From IMG/VR virus record IMGVR_UViG_3300037488_003510: a DNA stretch of 64,000 bases; one strand, 5' to 3'. The stretch comes from an uncultured virus (IMG/VR IMGVR_UViG_3300037488_003510). Taxonomy: Duplodnaviria; Heunggongvirae; Uroviricota; Caudoviricetes. The translations under genes and the position numbers were made by a program. Shown here one piece after another: positions 6,692-57,026 of the stretch. The notes under the pieces are model-generated. The model was not told the DNA's origin. It made no database searches and was given only the letters and a program-made list of their open reading frames with translations. How positions within the stretch are numbered: position 1 is the first letter of the stretch; every line of letters starts with the position of its first letter.

Positions 6692-7185
6692 GGGTGTTTC
6701 TCTTCCTCGGGAATTTTCAGAACTGTTCCAGCATCATCAATGCACTTTCCAACTAGCCCCAGGGTTACGCGAATTGACTTTTCACTGGTATTTTCGAACA
6801 TGCCACAGTTGACAGTTTCACCTTTTCGATAGAATCGTTTCGGGTAGAGAACTGACTGCATTCGCCTGCCGTATGAGCAGAGAACAAGGGTGGCTGAGAT
6901 CTTCCGGCCGGTTCCTGGACCATTCATTTCATCGATGAATTGTTCGTGATGAAGAAACAGCACAGGTTTATCAGTCGAATCGATTGTGGACACGGCGATA
7001 AAGTCCAGTTCGAAGTCGCTTGCCATTGGGCTCGAAATGATTTCCGACTTTTCTCTAGGAGACATGTCGCGAGCGACGCCGATGCAACACATCATTGGTT
7101 TACCTTTCAGATGACTCCGGAAGGCATCATAATTGCCGATAATATCGAGATCGAGCAACTTGTCAAGGTCGTCTGAGATCTTCAC
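6688..7185 (-). CDS. Hypothetical protein
   Basis: Overlapping start/stop with both neighbours. Confidence 0.6.
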   Translation of the reverse strand: MKISDDLDKLLDLDIIGNYDAFRSHLKGKPMMCCIGVARDMSPREKSEIISSPMASDFELDFIAVSTIDSTDKPVLFLHHEQFIDEMNGPGTGRKISATLVLCSYGRRMQSVLYPKRFYRKGETVNCGMFENTSEKSIRVTLGLVGKCIDDAGTVLKIPEEEKHP

Positions 7186-11713: not shown

Positions 11714-12322
11714 TCACATGCTTTTGAGTTGATTTAGCAGCGTAATGGCAGTGTTTACATCGAGGCGCAAGTGCAAGTCTACTTCGTTCTCATTGACGAC
11801 CTGAGCTTCCGACATGACACTGGCGAGCATCTTGAATGGTGAATGGTAGAAGGACACTGTGGTTTCCCTGGGCTTCAAGGCCACTTTTACCAACCGGGCG
11901 ATCTGCTGAGCGACCGCAGTTGTCTTATCCGCAAACTCATTCCAAGAGCGGTTTGAGGCTAACTCTTTTTCGAGGATGGGTAAGTATTCAGGTAGGAGGC
12001 GACGTTCGATATCGCGGGCAATCTGAGTTCCTGTCTTGTTGCCCGACACGGAGATCTTAGGCCGGCTCGCCGAGGACATTTTCCCCTCATGGTCCTTGGG
12101 GTAGTCGGTTGAGACAGTCAGCAAGTTCTTGTGGCGATCTGAATACACCTGGCTTTCGCCGATAGCGAGAATGGCCTGTGAGTGCTGTTCGCGGAGGTAG
12201 GCGCCGTCGCGGCCCCAGTCGTCTGGGAAGGGCTCCATTTCCCAGTCACCTGACAGGTGCTCGGCGATCTCCTCGATGGTGGCTTTGATAGCCAAGCGTT
12301 TTGCAACGTCCATATGGTTCAC
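11714..12322 (-). CDS. Hypothetical phage protein
   Basis: 202 aa; IARDIERRLLPEY. Confidence 0.65.
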   Translation of the reverse strand: MNHMDVAKRLAIKATIEEIAEHLSGDWEMEPFPDDWGRDGAYLREQHSQAILAIGESQVYSDRHKNLLTVSTDYPKDHEGKMSSASRPKISVSGNKTGTQIARDIERRLLPEYLPILEKELASNRSWNEFADKTTAVAQQIARLVKVALKPRETTVSFYHSPFKMLASVMSEAQVVNENEVDLHLRLDVNTAITLLNQLKSM

Positions 12323-13138
12323 CTTTTCCCAATCAAAAACTCAGCGAAGTCGAGTCCAGTTTTGGTTAGATCCTTCTCGATGAAGTAGGCGCCTGTCGGA
12401 CCTTTCAGTATTCGCCCTGGTGCTTCCTTCTTGCCGGAGAAGAGGGTGGCACCATCGTTCCAGGCAACAGTGTGACCACTGACGACAAGATCGTGGATGA
12501 GGGAGCCTCGCTCACCAACCACACGCGAGATTGAGACTGTCTTGTTTAGAGCAGCTAGCGCCTTGGCCTTTGCCGTAGGCAGACGCAAGGTACCGATGAA
12601 TCCATACCAGCTGTCATGTTCAGCGATCTGTCGAGCAAGTTCGGATCGCTTGGCGTCATATTCGAGTTCTGATTTGTAGTTCTTCTCGTCTCGTTGGATC
12701 TCTTGTTCGATCTCGCTCACTGGAATTACCTGAACGATGCTGGAATTGTTGGTCGATACTCCACATGAGAGTATTCCAGTCTCCGGGCGAGGAGCAATGA
12801 TTTTGATCGTTCGTGGACACCGCGTGGAGTTCCAGGAAAATCCAACATCAAACATGATGCTTATCCTCTCCAGTAGGCACCCCATTGAGCAGGTAGTGAG
12901 TCAACACCCCAGACACGATGCCCAGCACCACGGCTTTGGCCTCCATCTTCATAGGCGGCGCAGGCACCATCCTTCGCATGTGTTCACGCAGCTCCCCGAG
13001 GGTGCCATTGAGATTGGCGCCATTGGCGAGGTCGTGAGCGGCGGCGAGCTGGCAGAGGGTAGCCTTGCCTTCGCGGGCGTGGTCTAAGGTGGTTTTGACG
13101 AGGGCCACTTGCTCGGGGGTGAGAGATTTCATGGCGAT

Positions 13139-20966: not shown

Positions 20967-21056
20967 AGTTCACCTTCCCTTTGAGGTTCGATAGATGCTA
21001 GCGAGTCCTAGAAACGCGAGAGCCGCCGACAGTGATAGAGTGCAGATCGAAAGCCA

Positions 21057-21323: not shown

Positions 21324-21326
21324 AGT

Positions 21327-21566
21327 TCACCTTCCCTTTGAGGTTCGATAGATGCTAGCGAGTCCTAGAAACGCGAGAGCCGCCGACAGCGATAGAGTGC
21401 TAATTTTCACGATGTTGCCAATCTTGCGGACATCGTACCGGACATCATCCACCTTGGCACGCAGGCGTTTCTCTTGGCTGTCGGGCAAGAACAGCGAACC
21501 TACAGCATCGCTGTTCGCTCTCCCCCAGTTTCGCCTTGTGTTGCCTAAGATGAGATCTAACGCCAC
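21327..21566 (-). CDS. Small membrane protein with MALDLILG tag
   Basis: Tag plus C-terminal TM. Confidence 0.7.
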   Translation of the reverse strand: MALDLILGNTRRNWGRANSDAVGSLFLPDSQEKRLRAKVDDVRYDVRKIGNIVKISTLSLSAALAFLGLASIYRTSKGR

Positions 21567-47508: not shown

Positions 47509-48036
47509 ATGCTGCGTGCCCAAGATGTACTGGTGATCTGCAAGCTGTTCTCGCTGAACGGCGGCGACTGGACATTCAACCGACTGTCCGACGACTTAGG
47601 CATCTCAGCCAGCGAGGTTCACAACTCCGTGGCTCGATGCAAGTCCTCCCAACACATCATCTGCCCAGGAGGCGCTCTCAAGGTGGCACCGAAGAATCTC
47701 TTCGAGCTTCTAGCCTATGCGGTCCCCCGCATCTTCTATGCCGTGAGAGGAGGTCTTGAGATGGGCATGCCCACGGGAGCCCATATGCCCACCATCAAGA
47801 TGAGCTTCAACAGCATAGACAAGACAGTGCCCTTGGTCTGGCCTTGTTCAGATGGGACCGTCCGTGGCGAGAGCCTCTTACCTATCTACTCTTCGGTGCC
47901 GCAGGCGGCGAGCAAGGACACTGTTCTCTATGAACTCCTGTCTCTTGTGGAAATCATCAGAGTTGGAGAATCTAAATCCAAGAAACAAGCAATCGCTTTA
48001 CTTGAAAAGAGGATTCTTGGTAAAACGGGAGAATAA
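47509..48036 (+). CDS. HTH regulator, AbiEi/type IV antitoxin-like
   Basis: LSDDLGISASEVHNSV HTH; GMPT, VWP, RGE.L.PIY.SVP.A, LYELL.LV..IRVG. Confidence 0.7.
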   Translation: MLRAQDVLVICKLFSLNGGDWTFNRLSDDLGISASEVHNSVARCKSSQHIICPGGALKVAPKNLFELLAYAVPRIFYAVRGGLEMGMPTGAHMPTIKMSFNSIDKTVPLVWPCSDGTVRGESLLPIYSSVPQAASKDTVLYELLSLVEIIRVGESKSKKQAIALLEKRILGKTGE

Positions 48037-50459: not shown

Positions 50460-51548
50460 CTAGAACTTCAAGCAGAAGGTAGTGGGCTCGTTCTTGTCGT
50501 GAGGCCATATCGCCGCATGACAGTGCGGGCTCACGCAGCCGCCGTCTCCTGTCCATCCCCCTAAGTTGACGATCTTCCAGGGGTGGTTGTCGAGCCCCGA
50601 GACGTCTTTGTAGCCCCCGTAGTGGTCGTGACCGATGAAGAGGTAGCTCGGCATGGAGGCGTCACCCAAGGGCGCCGGGGTGGTCGGATCGCTCATCAAG
50701 GTGTTCACGTACCATTCCAGGTGGCTTCCTAGTCCATTTTGCTGCTTCTCAGAGTGTGAAACCACGGCCGGGTGAAACACGTCGGCTGGATAGCTCCAAC
50801 ACTTGGCAAAATCACTTCCGCTTCGAATGAGTGACCATTGTGTTTGACGCTCATGACTGTTGTAATCGTACAAAGCTGCCATGAGAGGCTCACTCTTCTT
50901 GTGCAAATCAAGAATGGTGTTCGGATCATTCAGATTGATGTCTGGCCTACCAATACCCGTTAAAACCTTCAGCCCAAAATACTTGGCTGCACTGTCTTGG
51001 CCGAGAATCAAATCATCCAATAGGTGTCCATGATGGAAGGTGATGTAAGGCCAGTAGCGTCCAATGGTGTAATTAGGATACGCAGCTCGAATGCGCCCAA
51101 ACTTGAAACGAGCTGGCCCGATCAAGTCTCTCAAGAAGTGATCTGAACCAGGGAGCATTTCCCCATTGTACTGTAGAAGAACATCCCCCTTGACGTTGTT
51201 GGTGAAGGGATTCAGGCTGCAATGGGTGGCTATCTTCTTCCACATGGAGTAGTCATGGTTGCCCCAGAGGATGATTAAGCTTTCAATTTTGATCTTACCT
51301 GTCAACTTCTCGAAGAACGACCTAGACACCTCGGAAACGAATGGCGAGAAGCCTTCCGGATCGAAACTGCCCGCATCCTTGGGTACGCACCCCTCGAAAC
51401 AGTCACCTGTCAATATCAGGCGATCTGTGCTGCCGTTGCATAGGCTCTCCAGCTGGTTCACGACATGCTCTTGGGCCATGGGGTCGTTGAGGACGCACAA
51501 GTCGTATCCTAGGTGTAGGTCGGAAACCGCGATGAAGTGTGCTGGCAT
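50460..51548 (-). CDS. Calcineurin-like metallophosphoesterase
   Basis: SDLHLG, GD, GNHD, HGH, GHDH, NLGGW. Confidence 0.85.
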   Translation of the reverse strand: MPAHFIAVSDLHLGYDLCVLNDPMAQEHVVNQLESLCNGSTDRLILTGDCFEGCVPKDAGSFDPEGFSPFVSEVSRSFFEKLTGKIKIESLIILWGNHDYSMWKKIATHCSLNPFTNNVKGDVLLQYNGEMLPGSDHFLRDLIGPARFKFGRIRAAYPNYTIGRYWPYITFHHGHLLDDLILGQDSAAKYFGLKVLTGIGRPDINLNDPNTILDLHKKSEPLMAALYDYNSHERQTQWSLIRSGSDFAKCWSYPADVFHPAVVSHSEKQQNGLGSHLEWYVNTLMSDPTTPAPLGDASMPSYLFIGHDHYGGYKDVSGLDNHPWKIVNLGGWTGDGGCVSPHCHAAIWPHDKNEPTTFCLKF

Positions 51549-52049: not shown

Positions 52050-52781
52050 CTATTCAGCTTCTAGAACGGTAGTCCAGTACGGTTTCCATTCCTCCGGAAC
52101 CCGTTGCATATCCATTTTCACGGTCATAGCTGGAAGATAGGATGGTTTGCGAGGTCTTTTGAGCAATTCCATACCGCCCCTGATAGAACCCACGCCCAGC
52201 TCGGATGCTTTGTCCATGACTTGATTCCGATCAGGGGAATTTTCATCGAACATGACGATAGCTTTTTCCTTGAGGACCGAGGCTGACGTGACCGACGGAT
52301 CTTCTCTAATGTCAGTGACGAACTGCTCAGCCAAAGCATTTGTCTCGAAGACGAAGTTTCGGCATTCCTTGACCTCAGCCGGTAGACGGTTGCTCTTTTG
52401 CTTGTTGCATGGAACGCAAGCCGTGACAATGTTCTCCCAGGTGGTTTTGCCTCCGCGAGAACGAGGAATAACGTGATCGAAGGTCAACTCTTCTGACTCA
52501 AATCGAGTTCCGCAGAACTGACACTTGGAGCCATCGCGAGTGTAGATGTTGAGTCGTGAGAACTTAACTCGAATGCGATCTCGCTTGAAGTTGTGCAGCA
52601 CACGAACAACCGAGGGCATAGGCCAGGCGCGACTCACTCCTTGGATGGTTCGGTCTTTGGAGTATTCGAGCACTTCGACCTTACCGAGGAAAAAGTCGCA
52701 AATGACCCGTTGCCAGTTTTCCACCCGGAGGGGGCGCATGCCTACGTCGAGGACAAGTACAGCGGCGTTCATGGAATTCAC
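52050..52781 (-). CDS. HNH endonuclease with internal insertion
   Basis: SRLNIYTRD..CQFCG...TFDHVIPRSRGG...WENIVTAC..CN..K. Confidence 0.9.
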   Translation of the reverse strand: MNSMNAAVLVLDVGMRPLRVENWQRVICDFFLGKVEVLEYSKDRTIQGVSRAWPMPSVVRVLHNFKRDRIRVKFSRLNIYTRDGSKCQFCGTRFESEELTFDHVIPRSRGGKTTWENIVTACVPCNKQKSNRLPAEVKECRNFVFETNALAEQFVTDIREDPSVTSASVLKEKAIVMFDENSPDRNQVMDKASELGVGSIRGGMELLKRPRKPSYLPAMTVKMDMQRVPEEWKPYWTTVLEAE

Positions 52782-52814
52782 CTTTTTCTACAGTTTTCGA
52801 GTGTTGGTTGATAG

Positions 52815-52897
52815 TGTCTCCCGAGGGAGTCGAACCCTCACGATCTTACGATCACCAGATTTTGAGTCTGACGTGACTGCCATTTCACCAGGGAGAC
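52815..52897 (-). tRNA. tRNA-Leu(CAA)
   Basis: Cloverleaf, loop CTCAAAA, long variable arm. Confidence 0.9.
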
Positions 52898-52923
52898 ATG
52901 AAGGATGTGTGGTGCGGAAAGGT

Positions 52924-53036
52924 AAGGTGAATCCGGCTCTCCACCGAATGAGGCCGGATAGTACCACGTCTCGCTCGCCGTTTTTCGAGGTACTGGATGG
53001 TTCCCCCGCGAGCTTCGGTGCCGACTGGTTCACCTT
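52924..53036 (-). ncRNA. Unknown structured RNA (possible double pseudoknot)
   Basis: 8-bp closing stem, two hairpins, two loop-pairing segments. Confidence 0.6.
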
Positions 53037-53037
53037 G

Positions 53038-53121
53038 TGCCGAAGACAGGAGTCGAACCTGCACGCTCTTTCAAGCAACCGATTTTAAGACGGCCGAGTC
53101 TACCATTCCATCCACTTCGGC
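53038..53121 (-). tRNA. tRNA-Leu(TAA)
   Basis: Loop CTTAAAA. Confidence 0.9.
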
Positions 53122-53127
53122 AAGTTG

Positions 53128-53210
53128 TGCGCCCAGGAGGAGTTGAACCTCCACGACCTTTCGGCCACTAGGTTCTGAGCCTAGCGTGACTGCCATTCCA
53201 CCATTGACGC
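53128..53210 (-). tRNA. tRNA-Leu(CAG)
   Basis: Loop CTCAGAA. Confidence 0.9.
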
Positions 53211-53224
53211 AAGTACAAACTGAG

Positions 53225-53307
53225 TGGTGGGCGTGGGAATCGAACCCACACGACCCGAGGGCCACAGGTTCCTAAGACCTGCGCGGCTGCCATTACGCCA
53301 GCCCACC
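53225..53307 (-). tRNA. tRNA-Leu(TAG)
   Basis: Loop CTTAGGA. Confidence 0.9.
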
Positions 53308-53326
53308 AAGAGACTGGTTATCATTG

Positions 53327-53409
53327 TGCGAATGGGGGGAGTCGAACCCCCACGAGGTTTCCCTCACCAGCACCTCAAGCTGGCGTGACTGCCATTCCAC
53401 CACACTCGC
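53327..53409 (-). tRNA. tRNA-Leu(GAG)
   Basis: Loop TTGAGGT. Confidence 0.9.
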
Positions 53410-53421
53410 ATGAAACTCTTG

Positions 53422-53493
53422 AGCCGACAGGGGAACTCGAATCCCCCTTTCCTGCTTACCAAGCAGGCGAGTCGCCATCTACTCATTGCCGGC
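53422..53493 (-). tRNA. tRNA-Thr(GGT)
   Basis: Loop TTGGTAA. Confidence 0.8.
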
Positions 53494-53507
53494 AAAATCT
53501 ATCAAAG

Positions 53508-53580
53508 AGCCCTCGGCGAGAATCGAACTCGCAGATCTTCGCTTAGGAGGCGAAGCCCGATTCCAGGTTCGGACAAGGGT
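53508..53580 (-). tRNA. tRNA-Arg(CCT)
   Basis: Loop CTCCTAA; A1-C72 mismatch. Confidence 0.8.
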
Positions 53581-53584
53581 AAAT

Positions 53585-53660
53585 TGGTGGACCCGCCCGG
53601 ATTTGAACCGGGAATGAACAGTTTATGAGACAGTTGCTTTAACCGTTAAGCCACAGGTCC
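53585..53660 (-). tRNA. tRNA-CAT, probably Ile2
   Basis: Loop CTCATAA, GGACCTG acceptor, encoded CCA. Confidence 0.75.
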
Positions 53661-53666
53661 ATTGAG

Positions 53667-53738
53667 CGCTCGCGAAGGGACTCGAACCCTCCTCAGTCGG
53701 TAGACAGCCGACCAGCCTCACCCGATGCTTACGCGAGC
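53667..53738 (-). tRNA. tRNA-Asp(GTC)
   Basis: Loop CTGTCTA, G73. Confidence 0.85.
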
Positions 53739-53766
53739 ATGAAAATCGAACGAGCCAAACAAATTG

Positions 53767-53837
53767 TCGGAGTGGAGGGAATTGAACCCCCATCAATGGT
53801 GTGTAGGACCATGGCCCTGCCGTTAGACGACACTCCG
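53767..53837 (-). tRNA. tRNA-Val(TAC), atypical
   Basis: Loop CCTACAC (C33), CGG acceptor, A73. Confidence 0.7.
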
Positions 53838-53838
53838 T

Positions 53839-53912
53839 TGGTACCAGCGGCGGGGAATGATCCCACTCCACTCGCTTATGAGGCGAACGTCCCATCCACT
53901 TAGGTCACTGGC
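53839..53912 (-). tRNA. tRNA-Met(CAT)
   Basis: Loop CTCATAA, encoded CCA, degenerate T-loop. Confidence 0.7.
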
Positions 53913-53920
53913 GTACTTTG

Positions 53921-53995
53921 CGTCCATGGAGGGACTCGAACCCCCACTATTCTCGCTTCGTAGGCGAGGACCTTATCCAATTAGGCAACATGGAC
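53921..53995 (-). tRNA. tRNA-Arg(ACG)
   Basis: Loop CTACGAA. Confidence 0.9.
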
Positions 53996-54002
53996 AAAAA
54001 AT

Positions 54003-54079
54003 TGGTACCCACGGAGGGACTCGAACTCCCAACATCTTGGTTCGAAGCCAAGTGCTCTGATCCATTGAGCTACGCGGGC
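54003..54079 (-). tRNA. tRNA-Arg(TCG)
   Basis: Loop CTTCGAA, encoded CCA. Confidence 0.9.
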
Positions 54080-54086
54080 ATTATTG

Positions 54087-54160
54087 TGCTCCCAGGGGGG
54101 CTCGAACCCCGCATTCCTGGCTTGAAGGGCCAGTGTCTTGACCAATTGGACGATGGGAGC
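54087..54160 (-). tRNA. tRNA-Glu(TTC)
   Basis: Loop CCTTCAA (C33). Confidence 0.85.
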
Positions 54161-54164
54161 GAAC

Positions 54165-54241
54165 TGGTGATCTCGGGGGGAGTTGAACCCCGCATTCCGG
54201 CAGTGAGAGTGCCGTGTCCTACCAGATTAGACGACGAGATC
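54165..54241 (-). tRNA. tRNA-Glu(CTC)
   Basis: Loop CTCTCAC, encoded CCA. Confidence 0.9.
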
Positions 54242-54460
54242 GTAGAACCAAGGTGATGTGAAGTGAGAGGTTGGAGTTGGCGGAGGTCGAACACTCGTTA
54301 CGGCCTCAGCAATGAAGTCTGGTCCCTTGTCTCGATGGTAGAACCGACTTTTCATGAACTCTATGAAGGTCCAGTAGCAAGCACCGCAGTAGACAACATC
54401 ATCGGAAAAGATGTGCCCACTTTGGGGATGGTATGGCCCCCCGCAAGCAAAGCATCGCAT
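54227..54460 (-). CDS. Small CxxC...CxxC protein inside the tRNA array
   Basis: MRCFACGGPYH...YCGAC; AGGGGG SD; fills the only large gap in the array. Confidence 0.65.
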   Translation of the reverse strand: MRCFACGGPYHPQSGHIFSDDVVYCGACYWTFIEFMKSRFYHRDKGPDFIAEAVTSVRPPPTPTSHFTSPWFYDLVV

Positions 54461-54477
54461 GAAAACCCCCTAGTTAG

Positions 54478-54551
54478 TGCTCCCGGCAGGAGTTGAACCT
54501 GCAATCTCGGGCTTAGAAGGCCCTTGCTCTGATCCATTGAGCCACGAGAGC
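54478..54551 (-). tRNA. tRNA-Arg(TCT)
   Basis: Loop CTTCTAA. Confidence 0.9.
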
Positions 54552-54559
54552 GTGATGAT

Positions 54560-54681
54560 TGGAGACCGTCGAAAGGTTGCCCTTTCCGAAAGGTATTCTA
54601 GCTAGTTTCCCGCGCGAGGTTCAAGCATGGCTTGTGAGCCGTCGATATCCTTCTAGTAGCCATTCTCTCGCCACAACGGTC
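54560..54681 (-). ncRNA. tRNA-like RNA with CCA end and expanded anticodon domain
   Basis: 7-bp acceptor GACCGTT/GACGGTC followed by T-CCA. Confidence 0.6.
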
Positions 54682-54686
54682 ATAAG

Positions 54687-54767
54687 CTCTCGGGGCAGGA
54701 CTCGAACCTGCAATGTTTTTCAACGCACGGTTAACAGCCGTGTGCCCTGCCATTAGGCGACCCGAGA
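54687..54767 (-). tRNA. tRNA-Asn(GTT) with enlarged variable loop
   Basis: Loop CTGTTAA, G73. Confidence 0.85.
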
Positions 54768-54771
54768 ATAG

Positions 54772-54843
54772 AGCTGGAGATCGGAGTCGGACCGACAACC
54801 TATGGTTTACAAAACCATTGCACTACCGTTGTGCTACTCCAGC
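54772..54843 (-). tRNA. tRNA-Thr(TGT)
   Basis: Loop TTTGTAA. Confidence 0.9.
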
Positions 54844-54844
54844 G

Positions 54845-54940
54845 TAGCGGGGGCCGGACTCGAACCGGCGAAACCGAGGTTATGAGCCTCGTGGGTTGCG
54901 ATCTGGCATTTCTGTCAGATCTCCTTTTCCCTACCCCGCA
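54845..54940 (-). tRNA. Initiator-like tRNA-fMet(CAT) with hairpin inserted in D-loop
   Basis: TGCGGGG/CCCCGCT with 1:72 mismatch; CGAGG-CTCATAA-CCTCG. Confidence 0.8.
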
Positions 54941-54941
54941 G

Positions 54942-55014
54942 AGCCCCTGTGGAGAATCGAACTCCATTCTTCGGCTTACGAGGCCGACGCATCACCAAAG
55001 CATGCTTCAGGGGC
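54942..55014 (-). tRNA. tRNA-Thr(CGT)
   Basis: Loop CTCGTAA. Confidence 0.85.
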
Positions 55015-55020
55015 AAGTTG

Positions 55021-55091
55021 AGCACCGTACTGGACTTGAACCAGCGTAGCCAGCTTGGAAGGCTGGAGCCCAACCCCTAGGCCAACGGTGC
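55021..55091 (-). tRNA. tRNA-Gly(TCC)
   Basis: Loop CTTCCAA, U73. Confidence 0.85.
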
Positions 55092-55101
55092 AAAAACGTA
55101 G

Positions 55102-55174
55102 AGCGAAGAACGGGACTCGAACCCGCATGGTCCACCTTGGCAAGGTGGTGCATAGCCAATTCTGCCATCTCCGC
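55102..55174 (-). tRNA. tRNA-Gly(GCC)
   Basis: Loop TTGCCAA, U73. Confidence 0.9.
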
Positions 55175-55320
55175 AAACCTGACAACAGAGCACGGGCTAA
55201 GACGGGTGATCGTCCCATGTTGCCCATGGTGAGCCAGGGAGAACCACAGCGACTTCTTCGAGGTGTTTTCTCTCCTGATCAGGTGAGAGGACTTTTCCCG
55301 AATACTGACTGTGATTTTTG

Positions 55321-55391
55321 AGGTTCCGACAGGACTTGAACCTGTGTAGCGGGTTTTGCAGACCCGAGCCTAGCCACTCGACCACGGAACC
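55321..55391 (-). tRNA. tRNA-Cys(GCA)
   Basis: Loop CTGCAAA, U73. Confidence 0.9.
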
Positions 55392-55397
55392 ATACTG

Positions 55398-55481
55398 AGG
55401 AGAGCAGCGTACTCGAAACGCAAGCTCGAAAGCTCCATCGGTTTAGCAAACCGCGACGACGCCCTAGTCGCTTTACTCTCC
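55398..55481 (-). tRNA. tRNA-Ser(GCT)
   Basis: Loop TTGCTAA, long variable arm. Confidence 0.85.
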
Positions 55482-55487
55482 AAAATG

Positions 55488-55571
55488 AGGAAGGCGAGAG
55501 AATCGAACTCCATGCCCGAGGGCACACACCGCTTTCGAAACGGGTGCAGCTCCATAGCTGCGTCACCTTCC
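55488..55571 (-). tRNA. tRNA-Ser(CGA)
   Basis: Loop TTCGAAA. Confidence 0.85.
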
Positions 55572-55576
55572 AACGG

Positions 55577-55660
55577 AGGAGAGCGAAGGGCACGATCCTT
55601 ATGCCCGAGGGCACGCACAGCTTTCCAGACTGGCCAGGCGCCATCGCCTGTTCACTCTCC
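55577..55660 (-). tRNA. tRNA-Ser(GGA)
   Basis: Loop CTGGAAA. Confidence 0.8.
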
Positions 55661-55665
55661 AATAG

Positions 55666-55749
55666 AGGAAGACGGAGGTGACGATCCCCAAGCCCAAGGG
55701 CTCCAGCCGCTTTCAAGGCGGTGCTCGGTCCACACCAAGTTCATCTTCC
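55666..55749 (-). tRNA. tRNA-Ser(TGA)
   Basis: Loop CTTGAAA. Confidence 0.8.
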
Positions 55750-55752
55750 GTC

Positions 55753-55826
55753 TGGCGGGTCGTGAGGGAATCGAACCCCCATAAGCAGATTTGGAGTTTG
55801 CTGTCCTACCGTTAGACGAACGACCC
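55753..55826 (-). tRNA. tRNA-Trp(CCA)
   Basis: Loop CTCCAAA, G73, encoded CCA. Confidence 0.9.
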
Positions 55827-55838
55827 AATAATTCGTTG

Positions 55839-55909
55839 TGGAGCCACTGAGAATTGAACTCAGATTAACAGACTGCCAGCCTGTTGTCCTCCCGTTGGAC
55901 GATGGCCCC
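55839..55909 (-). tRNA. tRNA-Ala(GGC)
   Basis: Loop CTGGCAG, G3:U70. Confidence 0.9.
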
Positions 55910-55914
55910 ATAGT

Positions 55915-56017
55915 GCCGGGTATCCTCCCGTTGGACGACTGACTTGCCACTAGCTGTATGCGAACGCATCTTGGTTATATGGCAAACCAGACCAGAATCG
56001 AACTGGCATCCCCCAGC
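55915..56017 (-). ncRNA. Circularly permuted tRNA-like RNA (YrlA/Y-RNA-like topology)
   Basis: T-arm and acceptor 3' strand precede acceptor 5' strand and D-arm. Confidence 0.7.
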
Positions 56018-56021
56018 GTCG

Positions 56022-56094
56022 TGGATCTGAAGGGACTCGAACCCTTTGCCTCCGGCTTGCAAAACCAGCGCTCTCCCAGTTGAGCTACAGACCC
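56022..56094 (-). tRNA. tRNA-Ala(TGC)
   Basis: Loop TTTGCAA, G3:U70. Confidence 0.9.
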
Positions 56095-56106
56095 GAATAC
56101 TTGTTG

Positions 56107-56179
56107 TCGGGGTGACAGGAATCGAACCTGCTGCCTCATGCTCCCAAAGCACGCGCTCTACCATGTGAGCTACACCCCG
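56107..56179 (-). tRNA. tRNA-Pro(TGG)
   Basis: Loop TTTGGGA. Confidence 0.9.
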
Positions 56180-56183
56180 GTAG

Positions 56184-56254
56184 GGTGACCAGTGGGGATC
56201 GAACCCACGATAGCTGGTTCACAGCCAGCCGCCTTACCACTTGGCTATGGCCAC
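56184..56254 (-). tRNA. tRNA-His(GTG)
   Basis: Loop CTGTGAA, C73; G-1 not encoded. Confidence 0.9.
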
Positions 56255-56256
56255 AG

Positions 56257-56328
56257 TCCTCTCGTTGGGAATTGAACCCACTTCGGTCGCCTATCATGCG
56301 ACTGCACTAACCAATGTGCTACGAGAGG
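56257..56328 (-). tRNA. tRNA-Ile(GAT)
   Basis: Loop ATGATAG. Confidence 0.8.
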
Positions 56329-56403
56329 TTGAGCAGTGTGCAGACGGTCTGTTGAACGTCCGGTTGACTTAAGAACCTGCACTGTTCATCAACAACTTTT
56401 TTG

Positions 56404-56476
56404 TCAGCGTGGCGGGAGTCGAACCCGCAGATTCTTGCTCCCGAAGCAAGCGGCTTACCATCAAGCCATCACGCTG
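56404..56476 (-). tRNA. tRNA-Pro(CGG)
   Basis: Loop TTCGGGA. Confidence 0.85.
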
Positions 56477-56480
56477 ATTG

Positions 56481-56551
56481 TTCCGGTGGAGCGAATCGAA
56501 CACTCGTAGATGGCTCCAAAGGCCACCGTCCTGCCATTGGACGACACCGGA
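56481..56551 (-). tRNA. tRNA-Gln(TTG)
   Basis: Loop CTTTGGA, U1-A72. Confidence 0.85.
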
Positions 56552-56555
56552 ATAG

Positions 56556-56629
56556 TTCCCGAGAGAGGAGTCGAACCTCTAACCAACGGAGTCAGAGTCC
56601 GCTACGCTTCCAGTTTGCGCCACTCGGGA
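56556..56629 (-). tRNA. tRNA-Gln(CTG)
   Basis: Loop CTCTGAC, U1-A72. Confidence 0.85.
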
Positions 56630-56639
56630 ATACTATCAG

Positions 56640-56712
56640 TGCCCCTCTCCAGAGTTGAACTGGACCCTCCGCGTTTTCAGCGCAGCGCTCGTCCCACGAG
56701 AGCTTAAGGGGC
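56640..56712 (-). tRNA. tRNA-Phe(GAA)
   Basis: Loop CTGAAAA. Confidence 0.85.
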
Positions 56713-56754
56713 ATAAAGACGGGACTGGTGATCCCGCCGCATGTAAACTATGAA

Positions 56755-56786
56755 GTTGTCAAAGAGTCCTCGGAAGCAAACCGAGG
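56755..56786 (-). promoter_or_regulatory. boxB/boxA-like antitermination signal
   Basis: Hairpin CCTCGG-N7-CCGAGG followed by CTCTTTGACAAC. Confidence 0.65.
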
Positions 56787-56792
56787 CTTGAG

Positions 56793-56864
56793 TGGGATGC
56801 CTGAGAATCGAACTCAGATTGACCGATTAAGAGCCGGCGGTTCTAACCGTTGAACTAGCAACCC
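56793..56864 (-). tRNA. tRNA-Lys(CTT)
   Basis: Loop CTCTTAA. Confidence 0.9.
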
Positions 56865-56868
56865 GTTG

Positions 56869-56941
56869 TGCTTGCGGAGGGACTCGAACCCTCAATGAGA
56901 GGCTTAAAAGGCCACTGCCCTAACCATTGGGCTACGCAAGC
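56869..56941 (-). tRNA. tRNA-Lys(TTT)
   Basis: Loop CTTTTAA. Confidence 0.9.
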
Positions 56942-56947
56942 GGAGTG

Positions 56948-57026
56948 TGGGTGAGGGGGGAATCGAACCCTCCTTGCCGAGGCCACTGGTTTACAGCCAG
57001 CTCCCACTCCATGTGAGATCTCACCC
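56948..57026 (-). tRNA. tRNA-Tyr(GTA)
   Basis: Loop CTGTAAA, variable arm. Confidence 0.85.

Follow-up and report, generated by a model that had tools for sequence, protein, structure and literature searches.

The 113-nt element at positions 52924-53036 (minus strand; p1 = 53036 and p113 = 52924, as delimited by sequence, helix search and folding) of the 64,000-nt stretch of DNA analysed here, referred to as the window, is tentatively read as a cassette for a small folded RNA, processed together with the tRNAs of a phage tRNA array, of the same kind as the RNAC and RNAD of phage T4 and not homologous to them, a reading to which we give a probability of about 0.42. It is based on the position of the element in the array, its pairings, their excess over shuffled sequences, its absence from Rfam and its partial conservation in relatives, from which we infer its transcription, processing, stability and any trans-acting role. 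The element matches no known RNA family and is so far an orphan. A first-pass annotation of this DNA had proposed an unclassified structured RNA co-processed with the tRNAs. This proposal is kept as the best reading, in view of the position in an array slot, a self-complementarity in the top 1%, the lack of an Rfam match and the conservation of the 5' two-thirds, its co-processing part being presumed.

The last long slot of a phage tRNA array

The window appears to derive from a large uncultured phage. A 128,897-nt contig carries the window's own protein, three of the 14 ORFs tested have matches in PHROGs, and few ORFs match a Pfam family (4 of 13, then 2 of 45), the phage-like matches being an amidase, an HNH endonuclease, a glycine-rich domain and a glycosyltransferase. 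A 1408-aa protein of the window gives weak matches only, to two huge uncultured phage records. The tRNA array comprises 34 tRNA genes called by ARAGORN at 52814-57026, all on the minus strand, and 29 of them were confirmed by Rfam at the gathering score. Most array spacers measure 1-27 nt, while seven long slots reach 74-235 nt. The slot of the element is the last long one, lying between tRNA-Leu(UAA) (53037-53121, minus strand; ARAGORN, 40 bits in Rfam) and tRNA-Leu(CAA) (52814-52897, minus strand; ARAGORN and Rfam), the final tRNA of the array. A single base, C53037, separates the discriminator A53038 of tRNA-Leu(UAA) from p1, so that the placement directly after this tRNA given in the first-pass annotation is confirmed, the element abutting the tRNA called by ARAGORN. 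On its other side, a pyrimidine-rich linker of 26 nt (52898-52923, minus strand), unpaired in the minimum free energy (MFE) fold of element plus linker, leads to tRNA-Leu(CAA). An HNH endonuclease gene (52050-52781, minus strand; PF14279, 8.2e-18; phrog_16726, 1.2e-27) is found just past the array, 143 nt downstream of the element.

Elsewhere in the array, the minus strand at 55392-55749 holds four tandem units of about 89 nt with class-II cloverleaf folds, whose anticodons UGA, GGA, CGA and GCU are Ser anticodons. Each unit has an unusual D stem of 5-6 bp with a 4-6-nt loop, none of the four is called by ARAGORN, and Rfam gives one weak tRNA-Sec match (55489-55571, 35.2 bits). With these units included, the array covers all 20 amino acids. 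In addition, a 97-nt tRNA-shaped RNA at 54844-54940 (minus strand; fold z -3.24) shows an acceptor, an anticodon arm (CAU) and a canonical T-arm, with about 38 nt where a D arm is expected, and has a weak tRNA match (19.6 bits) overlapping a YrlA match (30.8 bits). A sub-threshold tRNA with a CAU anticodon is located at 53842-53912 (minus strand; 24.8 bits for a gathering score of 29, no ARAGORN call). Two further slots on the minus strand, 55175-55319 (fold z -3.48 vs -0.51 on the opposite strand) and 56713-56791 (-2.88 vs -1.57), may, judging from these predicted folds, be additional non-tRNA RNA modules. Besides, a 77-aa Cys-rich ORF (54227-54460, minus strand) lies mid-array inside the 235-nt slot, and the slot 55910-56020 contains pieces of adjacent tRNAs, with 55915-55938 being 88% like 55879-55902 and a T-arm-like piece at 55994-56008. 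Such tRNA fragments indicate that the array has been reshuffled.

Helices, chance and alternative folds

Perfect Watson-Crick helices were searched on the minus-strand RNA, numbered p1-p113. The closing helix P1 (8 bp) joins p1-8 (53029-53036, minus strand; pair probability 0.5-1.0), which equals an SD-like 8-mer, to p106-113 (52924-52931, minus strand). The hairpin H2 (p43-48/p72-77, 6 bp; 52960-52994, minus strand) has a 23-nt loop and a pair probability of 0.20-0.22. The hairpin H3 (p78-87/p96-106; 52931-52959, minus strand), found by the helix search and in the MFE fold with a pair probability of 0.40-0.57, consists of p78-84/p100-106 (7 bp) and, in the MFE fold, p85-87/p96-98, with A99 bulged and an 8-nt loop, and its 3' strand runs without gap into the 3' strand of P1. 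An unbroken 13-nt strand, p17-29 (53008-53020, minus strand; helix search and loop-complement shuffles), supplies the 5' halves of two more helices: p17-23 pairs in X1 (7 bp) with p89-95 in the H3 loop (52942-52948, minus strand; pair probability 0.36-0.43), and p24-29 pairs in X2 (6 bp) with p59-64 in the H2 loop (52973-52978, minus strand; 0.48-0.55). The five helices named at first pass, i.e. the closing stem, the two hairpins and the two loop complements, are thus all present on the minus strand at these coordinates, and the single 5' segment said to be complementary to both hairpin loops (7 bp + 6 bp) is seen as the contiguous p17-29. All 34 pairs of the element are Watson-Crick and none is G.U, so that the sequence gives no strand signal in terms of RNA versus DNA.

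The 8-mer AAGGTGAA, which constitutes p1-8, is an SD-like motif present in 13 copies in the window for 2.46 expected, a count reached by none of 100 shuffles. Ten of the 13 copies are on the coding minus strand, several of them just before or over ORF starts, that of the HNH gene included (for example at 52777-52784, 12318-12325, 20969-20976 and 21326-21333), and the word is likely a ribosome-binding motif of the phage. In P1, this SD-like word is paired with its own perfect complement, and by eye no start codon lies at a usable distance past p1-8. It can also be observed that p1-14 (53023-53036) is identical by eye at 11 of 14 positions to the 18-nt spacer after tRNA-Leu(GAG) (53312-53325; repeat family D6), the three differences being the positions that give p1-8 its complementarity to p106-113. 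Judging from this likeness, part of P1 may have been inherited from a spacer.

Sets of four non-overlapping perfect helices of at least 6 bp were obtained in 7 of 5000 dinucleotide shuffles, and at least 27 paired bp in one of 5000 such shuffles and in none of 1756 natural 113-nt windows. When both hairpins were kept fixed and p9-42 was shuffled in 200,000 trials, a 6-bp complement to the H2 loop appeared 15,342 times, a 7-bp complement to the H3 loop 3,993 times, both together 227 times, and both in adjacent position 42 times. Of 9127 windows scanned, 11 have four helices, and they fall at five loci including the element. Four other loci equal the element in their density of helices of at least 6 bp per 113 nt (near 21379, 47657-47713, 42673 and 6896-6910). 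The self-complementarity of the element is a top-1% site and not a unique one, and could be a chance pick for a reader of 64 kb. As for the nested fold, its MFE of -41.7 kcal/mol corresponds to a z-score of -1.60, 17 of 200 shuffles folding equally well, and a second shuffle set gives -1.99 for the minus strand and -2.02 for the plus strand. Taken together, these data indicate that the self-pairing of the element exceeds chance, not overwhelmingly.

A fold forced to contain P1, H2 and H3 reaches -41.2 kcal/mol and one forced to contain P1, X1 and X2 reaches -40.8 kcal/mol, while the nested ensemble has P1 at a pair probability near 1.0 and is split between X1 (0.43) and H3 (0.57) and between X2 (0.55) and H2 (0.22). 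In these computed energies, the loop helices X1 and X2 come out as isoenergetic alternatives to the hairpins H3 and H2. Because the crossing helices rival the hairpins, the z-score of the nested fold is weak, and two readings therefore remain, in which either all five helices would form together or the RNA would adopt two states, since the predicted energies do not tell a knot from a two-state switch. The double pseudoknot suggested at first pass thus stands as far as its pairings are present and its topology is possible, and stays a candidate structure, X1 and X2 being thermodynamically equal to the hairpins that they cross. In terms of geometry, X2 and H2 would make what we take to be a plain H-type knot whose loops measure 13, 10 and 7 nt. 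The full 7-bp X1 is presumably incompatible with the inner three pairs of H3, zero nucleotides being left between p95 and p96, and opening of these three pairs would, under the same assumed geometry, provide X1 with linkers of 4 and 4 nt.

Other identities, homologues and partial relatives

No tRNA is called in 52924-53036 by ARAGORN or Rfam and no T-loop is seen, and the highest local-alignment score of the element with any tRNA of the array is 25, below the shuffle 95th percentile of 26. An origin from the array's tRNAs was rejected on this score, and the earlier statement that the element is not a tRNA holds. A protein-coding reading was likewise rejected: the five listed variant positions (p10, p11, p19, p23 and p38) share no common codon phase, and the ORFs across the element, used as queries in two frames against the protein collection within lengths of 52-168 aa and 99-315 aa, matched no protein. 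When compared to the last 60 nt of two real 16S rRNA, the element scores 31.4, a value reached by one of 500 shuffles. Elsewhere in this phage, windows reach 31.35, 30.6 and 29.75, that is within 0.05 to 2 points, and the Rfam SSU model gives no match, whence a mimic of the 16S 3' tail was rejected. Likenesses to a CRISPR repeat, SRP, 6S, RNase P and tmRNA, considered by eye, were also set aside, none being backed by Rfam. Finally, a terminator-like hairpin at 52945-52926 (p92-97/p106-111, then a poor U-run) has a pair probability of 0.0, and six terminator-like sites were found for 6.2 expected by chance.

The first-pass annotation had also offered a ribozyme as an option. That the element would be a self-cleaving ribozyme trimming the trailer of tRNA-Leu(UAA), in the manner of the theta ribozymes beside phage tRNAs, is very improbable. 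A search of 52880-53080 against Rfam 15 (4227 families) at E<=10 returned no ribozyme, riboswitch, SRP, 6S, tmRNA or YrlA match on the element, twister, pistol, hammerhead, hatchet and the other small self-cleaving ribozymes included, the three matches in that interval being at chance level (tRNA-Sec over the tRNA, mir-7950 and GHRLOS on the other strand). This Infernal/Rfam comparison, which the annotation had itself advised, agrees with its remark that no fit to HDV/theta, twister or SRP could be made by eye. By eye, no hammerhead core motif is present in the element. Besides, a loose HDV-like descriptor has a single site in this region, which starts at 53059 within the tRNA T-arm, and across the whole window the same descriptor finds 440 start sites on one strand and 265 on the other. 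In the element P1 lies around everything, X1 crosses H3 and X2 crosses H2, whereas in HDV P1 crosses P2 and encloses P3, so that, with this other strand order and descriptor sites at chance level, an HDV-like fit was rejected and the ribozyme proposal finds no support. The size of the element, which we take to be about twice that of a minimal HDV-like ribozyme, also counts against it. On the other side, a double-pseudoknot topology is possible in the element, and its site right after a tRNA-Leu is among those favoured by theta matches, as given in PMC10879173.

No full-length homologue of the element was found in any collection searched, and the collection of homologues recommended at first pass accordingly yielded partial relatives over p1-76 and p12-73, and none over the full length. 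By blastn, 52700-53300 met 32 of 50,697 phage records, all under the tRNA-Leu genes and none on the element (query 225-337), and the 113 nt alone met 28 records at E<=10, namely 27 mycobacteriophage tape-measure genes (E=4) and one record at E=0.3. In viral contigs, the 17-mer p15-31 was found at 17 loci, all coding-like and none with tRNAs, a degenerate 17-mer of p21-37 at three chance loci only, and a 21-mer of the tRNA-Leu(UAA) 3' end, an H3 19-mer, an H2 20-mer and the HNH protein at no locus. In genome contigs, an 18-mer query gave 60 loci, none of them homologous. A covariance model of the element (R1) matched only itself over 24 sources and 378,250 bases, which comprise the window, 22 related or fetched loci and the T4 tRNA region (locus L135). 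No published description of the element was found among open-access papers and bioRxiv.

The calcineurin-like phosphoesterase gene beside the array (50460-51548) has 87 metagenomic homologues at 32-56% identity. In viral contigs it was met at no locus with a single protein query and at one locus with an alignment query. In the 54 phosphoesterase loci examined, i.e. 53 metagenome loci (L019-L071) and L018, a tRNA array is absent, three isolated tRNA-Arg genes being all that was found; neither blastn nor nhmmer matched the element in them, and their gene order around the phosphoesterase is rearranged. The array is therefore not syntenic in the wider phage group.

Each of 16 public runs contains only 4-6% of the sampled window words. 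Logan contigs of four public runs were placed on the window at 80% likeness, and those of two runs, labelled run X2 and run X3 independently of the helix names, carry the 5' two-thirds of the element at about 84-93% identity. From run X3, a 247-nt contig aligns with 52961-53109 (the 3' part of tRNA-Leu(UAA) and p1-76), 14 of 149 letters differing, and has a 17-letter insertion between 53036 and 53037, of which 14 of 17 letters are identical by eye to p69-85. From run X2, a 151-nt contig spans p12-73, where 10 of 62 letters differ, and on each side at least 42 of its letters do not fit the window at 80% likeness, so that sequence conservation does not extend there to the closing helix and H3. 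Both runs share the listed variants p38 C>A and p23 A>G, and run X3 alone adds p19 C>U, p11 A>G and p10 C>U, with 144 less-supported differences outside this list. X1 would survive two of these changes, p19 C>U and p23 A>G, in the form of G.U pairs, provided that p93 and p89 have stayed the same, the chance that two transitions keep this pairing by luck being presumably about one in four. In HNH-region contigs of the same runs, 36 of 228 to 59 of 322 letters differ. From these contigs, which possibly come from different genomes, p1-76 appears at least as conserved as the adjacent tRNA and more conserved than the HNH gene. In addition, one contig of run X3 joins 52895 to 53037, skipping 141 bases, the letters between being not read, and a relative may thus lack the element. 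No contig of the four runs covers 52908-52941, a gap that is no proof of absence, and in the RNA run X15 contigs are on tRNAs only, it being noted that contigs cannot show RNA ends.

Competing readings and known systems

If the element is such an RNA cassette, it would be transcribed within the polycistronic precursor of the tRNA array, released at its 5' end by cleavage after tRNA-Leu(UAA), and released at its 3' end by the RNase P cut at tRNA-Leu(CAA) with trimming of the 26-nt linker. The 8-bp end helix, stacked directly on the 10-bp hairpin, would make the released RNA compact and exonuclease-resistant, while pairing of the 13-nt strand with both hairpin loops would lead to a double pseudoknot or else to an alternative fold of the same energy. 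This reading is favoured by an element that shares the strand of all 34 tRNAs, starts one base past a discriminator and occupies one of only seven long slots, in a layout also seen in the T4 cluster, with an HNH gene past the array here. The pairing excess over shuffles, the high pair probability of P1 and its contiguity with H3, the non-coding nature of the element, the conservation of p1-76 in relatives' contigs and the structure of two other slots (55175-55319 and 56713-56791) on the transcribed strand point the same way. It is weakened by the failure to find a full-length homologue, by a nested fold with a z-score of -1.6 to -2.0 that is equal on both strands, by the lack of any G.U pair, by about four equally helix-rich loci in the window, by a closing helix and an H3 not conserved in the run X2 contig, by a relative in run X3 that may lack the element, by the likeness of p1-14 to the tRNA-Leu(GAG) spacer, and by the restriction of the run X15 contigs to tRNAs.

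Several of these weaknesses are what a non-functional spacer would display, with complementarity due to chance or left as relics of old duplications in a reshuffled array, an explanation that we regard as somewhat unlikely. The element would then stand out among several long spacers only as the one richest in helices. It accommodates the five loci with four helices in 64 kb and the MFE z-score of -1.6, the absence of a homologue in the collections searched, the tRNA fragments elsewhere in the array, the resemblance of p1-14 to another Leu spacer, and a slot maybe absent or replaced in a relative (joint 52895-53037). It fits poorly with a complementarity to both loops that arises in only 227 of 200,000 shuffles, with a similarity to the array tRNAs that does not go beyond chance (25 vs 26), and with a p1-76 stretch whose divergence does not exceed that of the adjacent tRNA and stays below that of the HNH gene. 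A two-state switch would turn the near equality of fold A (P1+H2+H3, -41.2 kcal/mol) and fold B (P1 plus a 13-bp X1/X2 helix, -40.8 kcal/mol) into a function: with the third pairing p92-97/p106-111 and a U-rich run acting like a weak terminator, it would set the level of read-through towards tRNA-Leu(CAA) and the HNH gene. The split ensemble and the terminator-like hairpin at 52945-52926 agree with it, as does the clash of the 7-bp X1 with the inner 3 bp of H3 that we expect from assumed pseudoknot geometry. Such a switch is nonetheless improbable, terminator-like sites occurring at chance rate, the hairpin having a pair probability of 0.0 and a poor U-run, and no ligand or protein partner being indicated. 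Just as improbable is a feature acting in DNA, where the stretch with its inverted repeats would serve as a variable cassette or a recognition region, linked either with the HNH homing endonuclease or with recombination. Pairs that are all Watson-Crick are strand-symmetric, the HNH gene lies 143 nt downstream, and relatives show indel-like heterogeneity (the 17-letter insertion and the 141-base skip); against these points, a second copy was found neither elsewhere in the window nor in 23 loci, the terminal inverted repeat measures only 8 bp, no target duplication is seen, and the HNH protein query in viral contigs gave no locus.

The RNA cassette reading has a bolder version, which we consider quite unlikely, according to which the element would be the founder of a new compact phage RNA class. 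In it, the 13-nt strand would splint two hairpin loops into a continuous helix within a closed stem, as a double pseudoknot or a two-state switch, and the RNA, cut from the tRNA precursor, would act in trans during infection, for instance on host tRNA- or RNA-processing or on a tRNA-targeting defence. The tRNA arrays of large phages are more and more linked with codon supply and with evasion of host defences that cleave tRNAs, and the non-tRNA RNAs within such arrays have been unexplained since T4 RNAC and RNAD, the element being a candidate further family. A compact RNA with two loop-to-strand pairings is also a small, tractable target for structure probing. As a single sequence with partial relatives, the element has the value of a candidate and not of a result.

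Among known systems, theta ribozymes are described in PMC10879173 as minimal HDV-like motifs at most 5 nt from a tRNA, with the order P1-P2-P3-L3-P3'-P1'-P1.1-P4-J4/2-P2', cleavage at the 5' end of P1 and the catalytic C first in J4/2. According to the same text, their self-cleavage is Mg2+-dependent and abolished by changing the catalytic C to U, and more than 70% of the theta matches have a tRNA-Met, a suppressor tRNA or a tRNA-Leu as neighbour, at +/-5 nt or less from the cleavage site. Theta ribozymes resemble the element in being phage-borne, in directly flanking a tRNA, often tRNA-Leu, and in the idea of a double pseudoknot, and differ from it in helix order, in size and in a catalytic-C J4/2 context at a sensible cleavage site, which is absent in the element. 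Classical H-type pseudoknots share the strand order of X2 and H2, which lies inside the stretch p12-73 conserved in relatives' contigs, whereas the element adds to this another loop pairing (X1) and a helix that encloses the whole, and lies in neither a frameshift nor a 3'-UTR context.

The closest likeness in kind remains that to T4 RNAC and RNAD. Stability and processing have been shown for these two RNAs, while for the element they would have to be presumed. No sequence or model similarity links them to the element, R1 having no match in the T4 locus, and RNAC ends, in its computed fold, in a canonical T-arm, whereas the element has no T-loop. The roles of RNAC and RNAD are given as unknown in PMC3014915. 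In the T4 tRNA cluster, rnaD (119 nt) is found 1 nt after tRNA-Arg and rnaC (139 nt) 6 nt later, with the homing endonuclease gene segB within the cluster. RNAD (species 2, 119 nt) and RNAC (species 1, 139 nt) are, like the element, non-tRNA genes of about 110-140 nt on the tRNA strand, and rnaD and the element both start 1 nt after a tRNA, with a homing endonuclease gene in or beside the cluster. Being non-tRNA, non-coding, on the tRNA strand and abutting a tRNA inside the cluster, the element shares the genomic features of the RNAC/RNAD kind.
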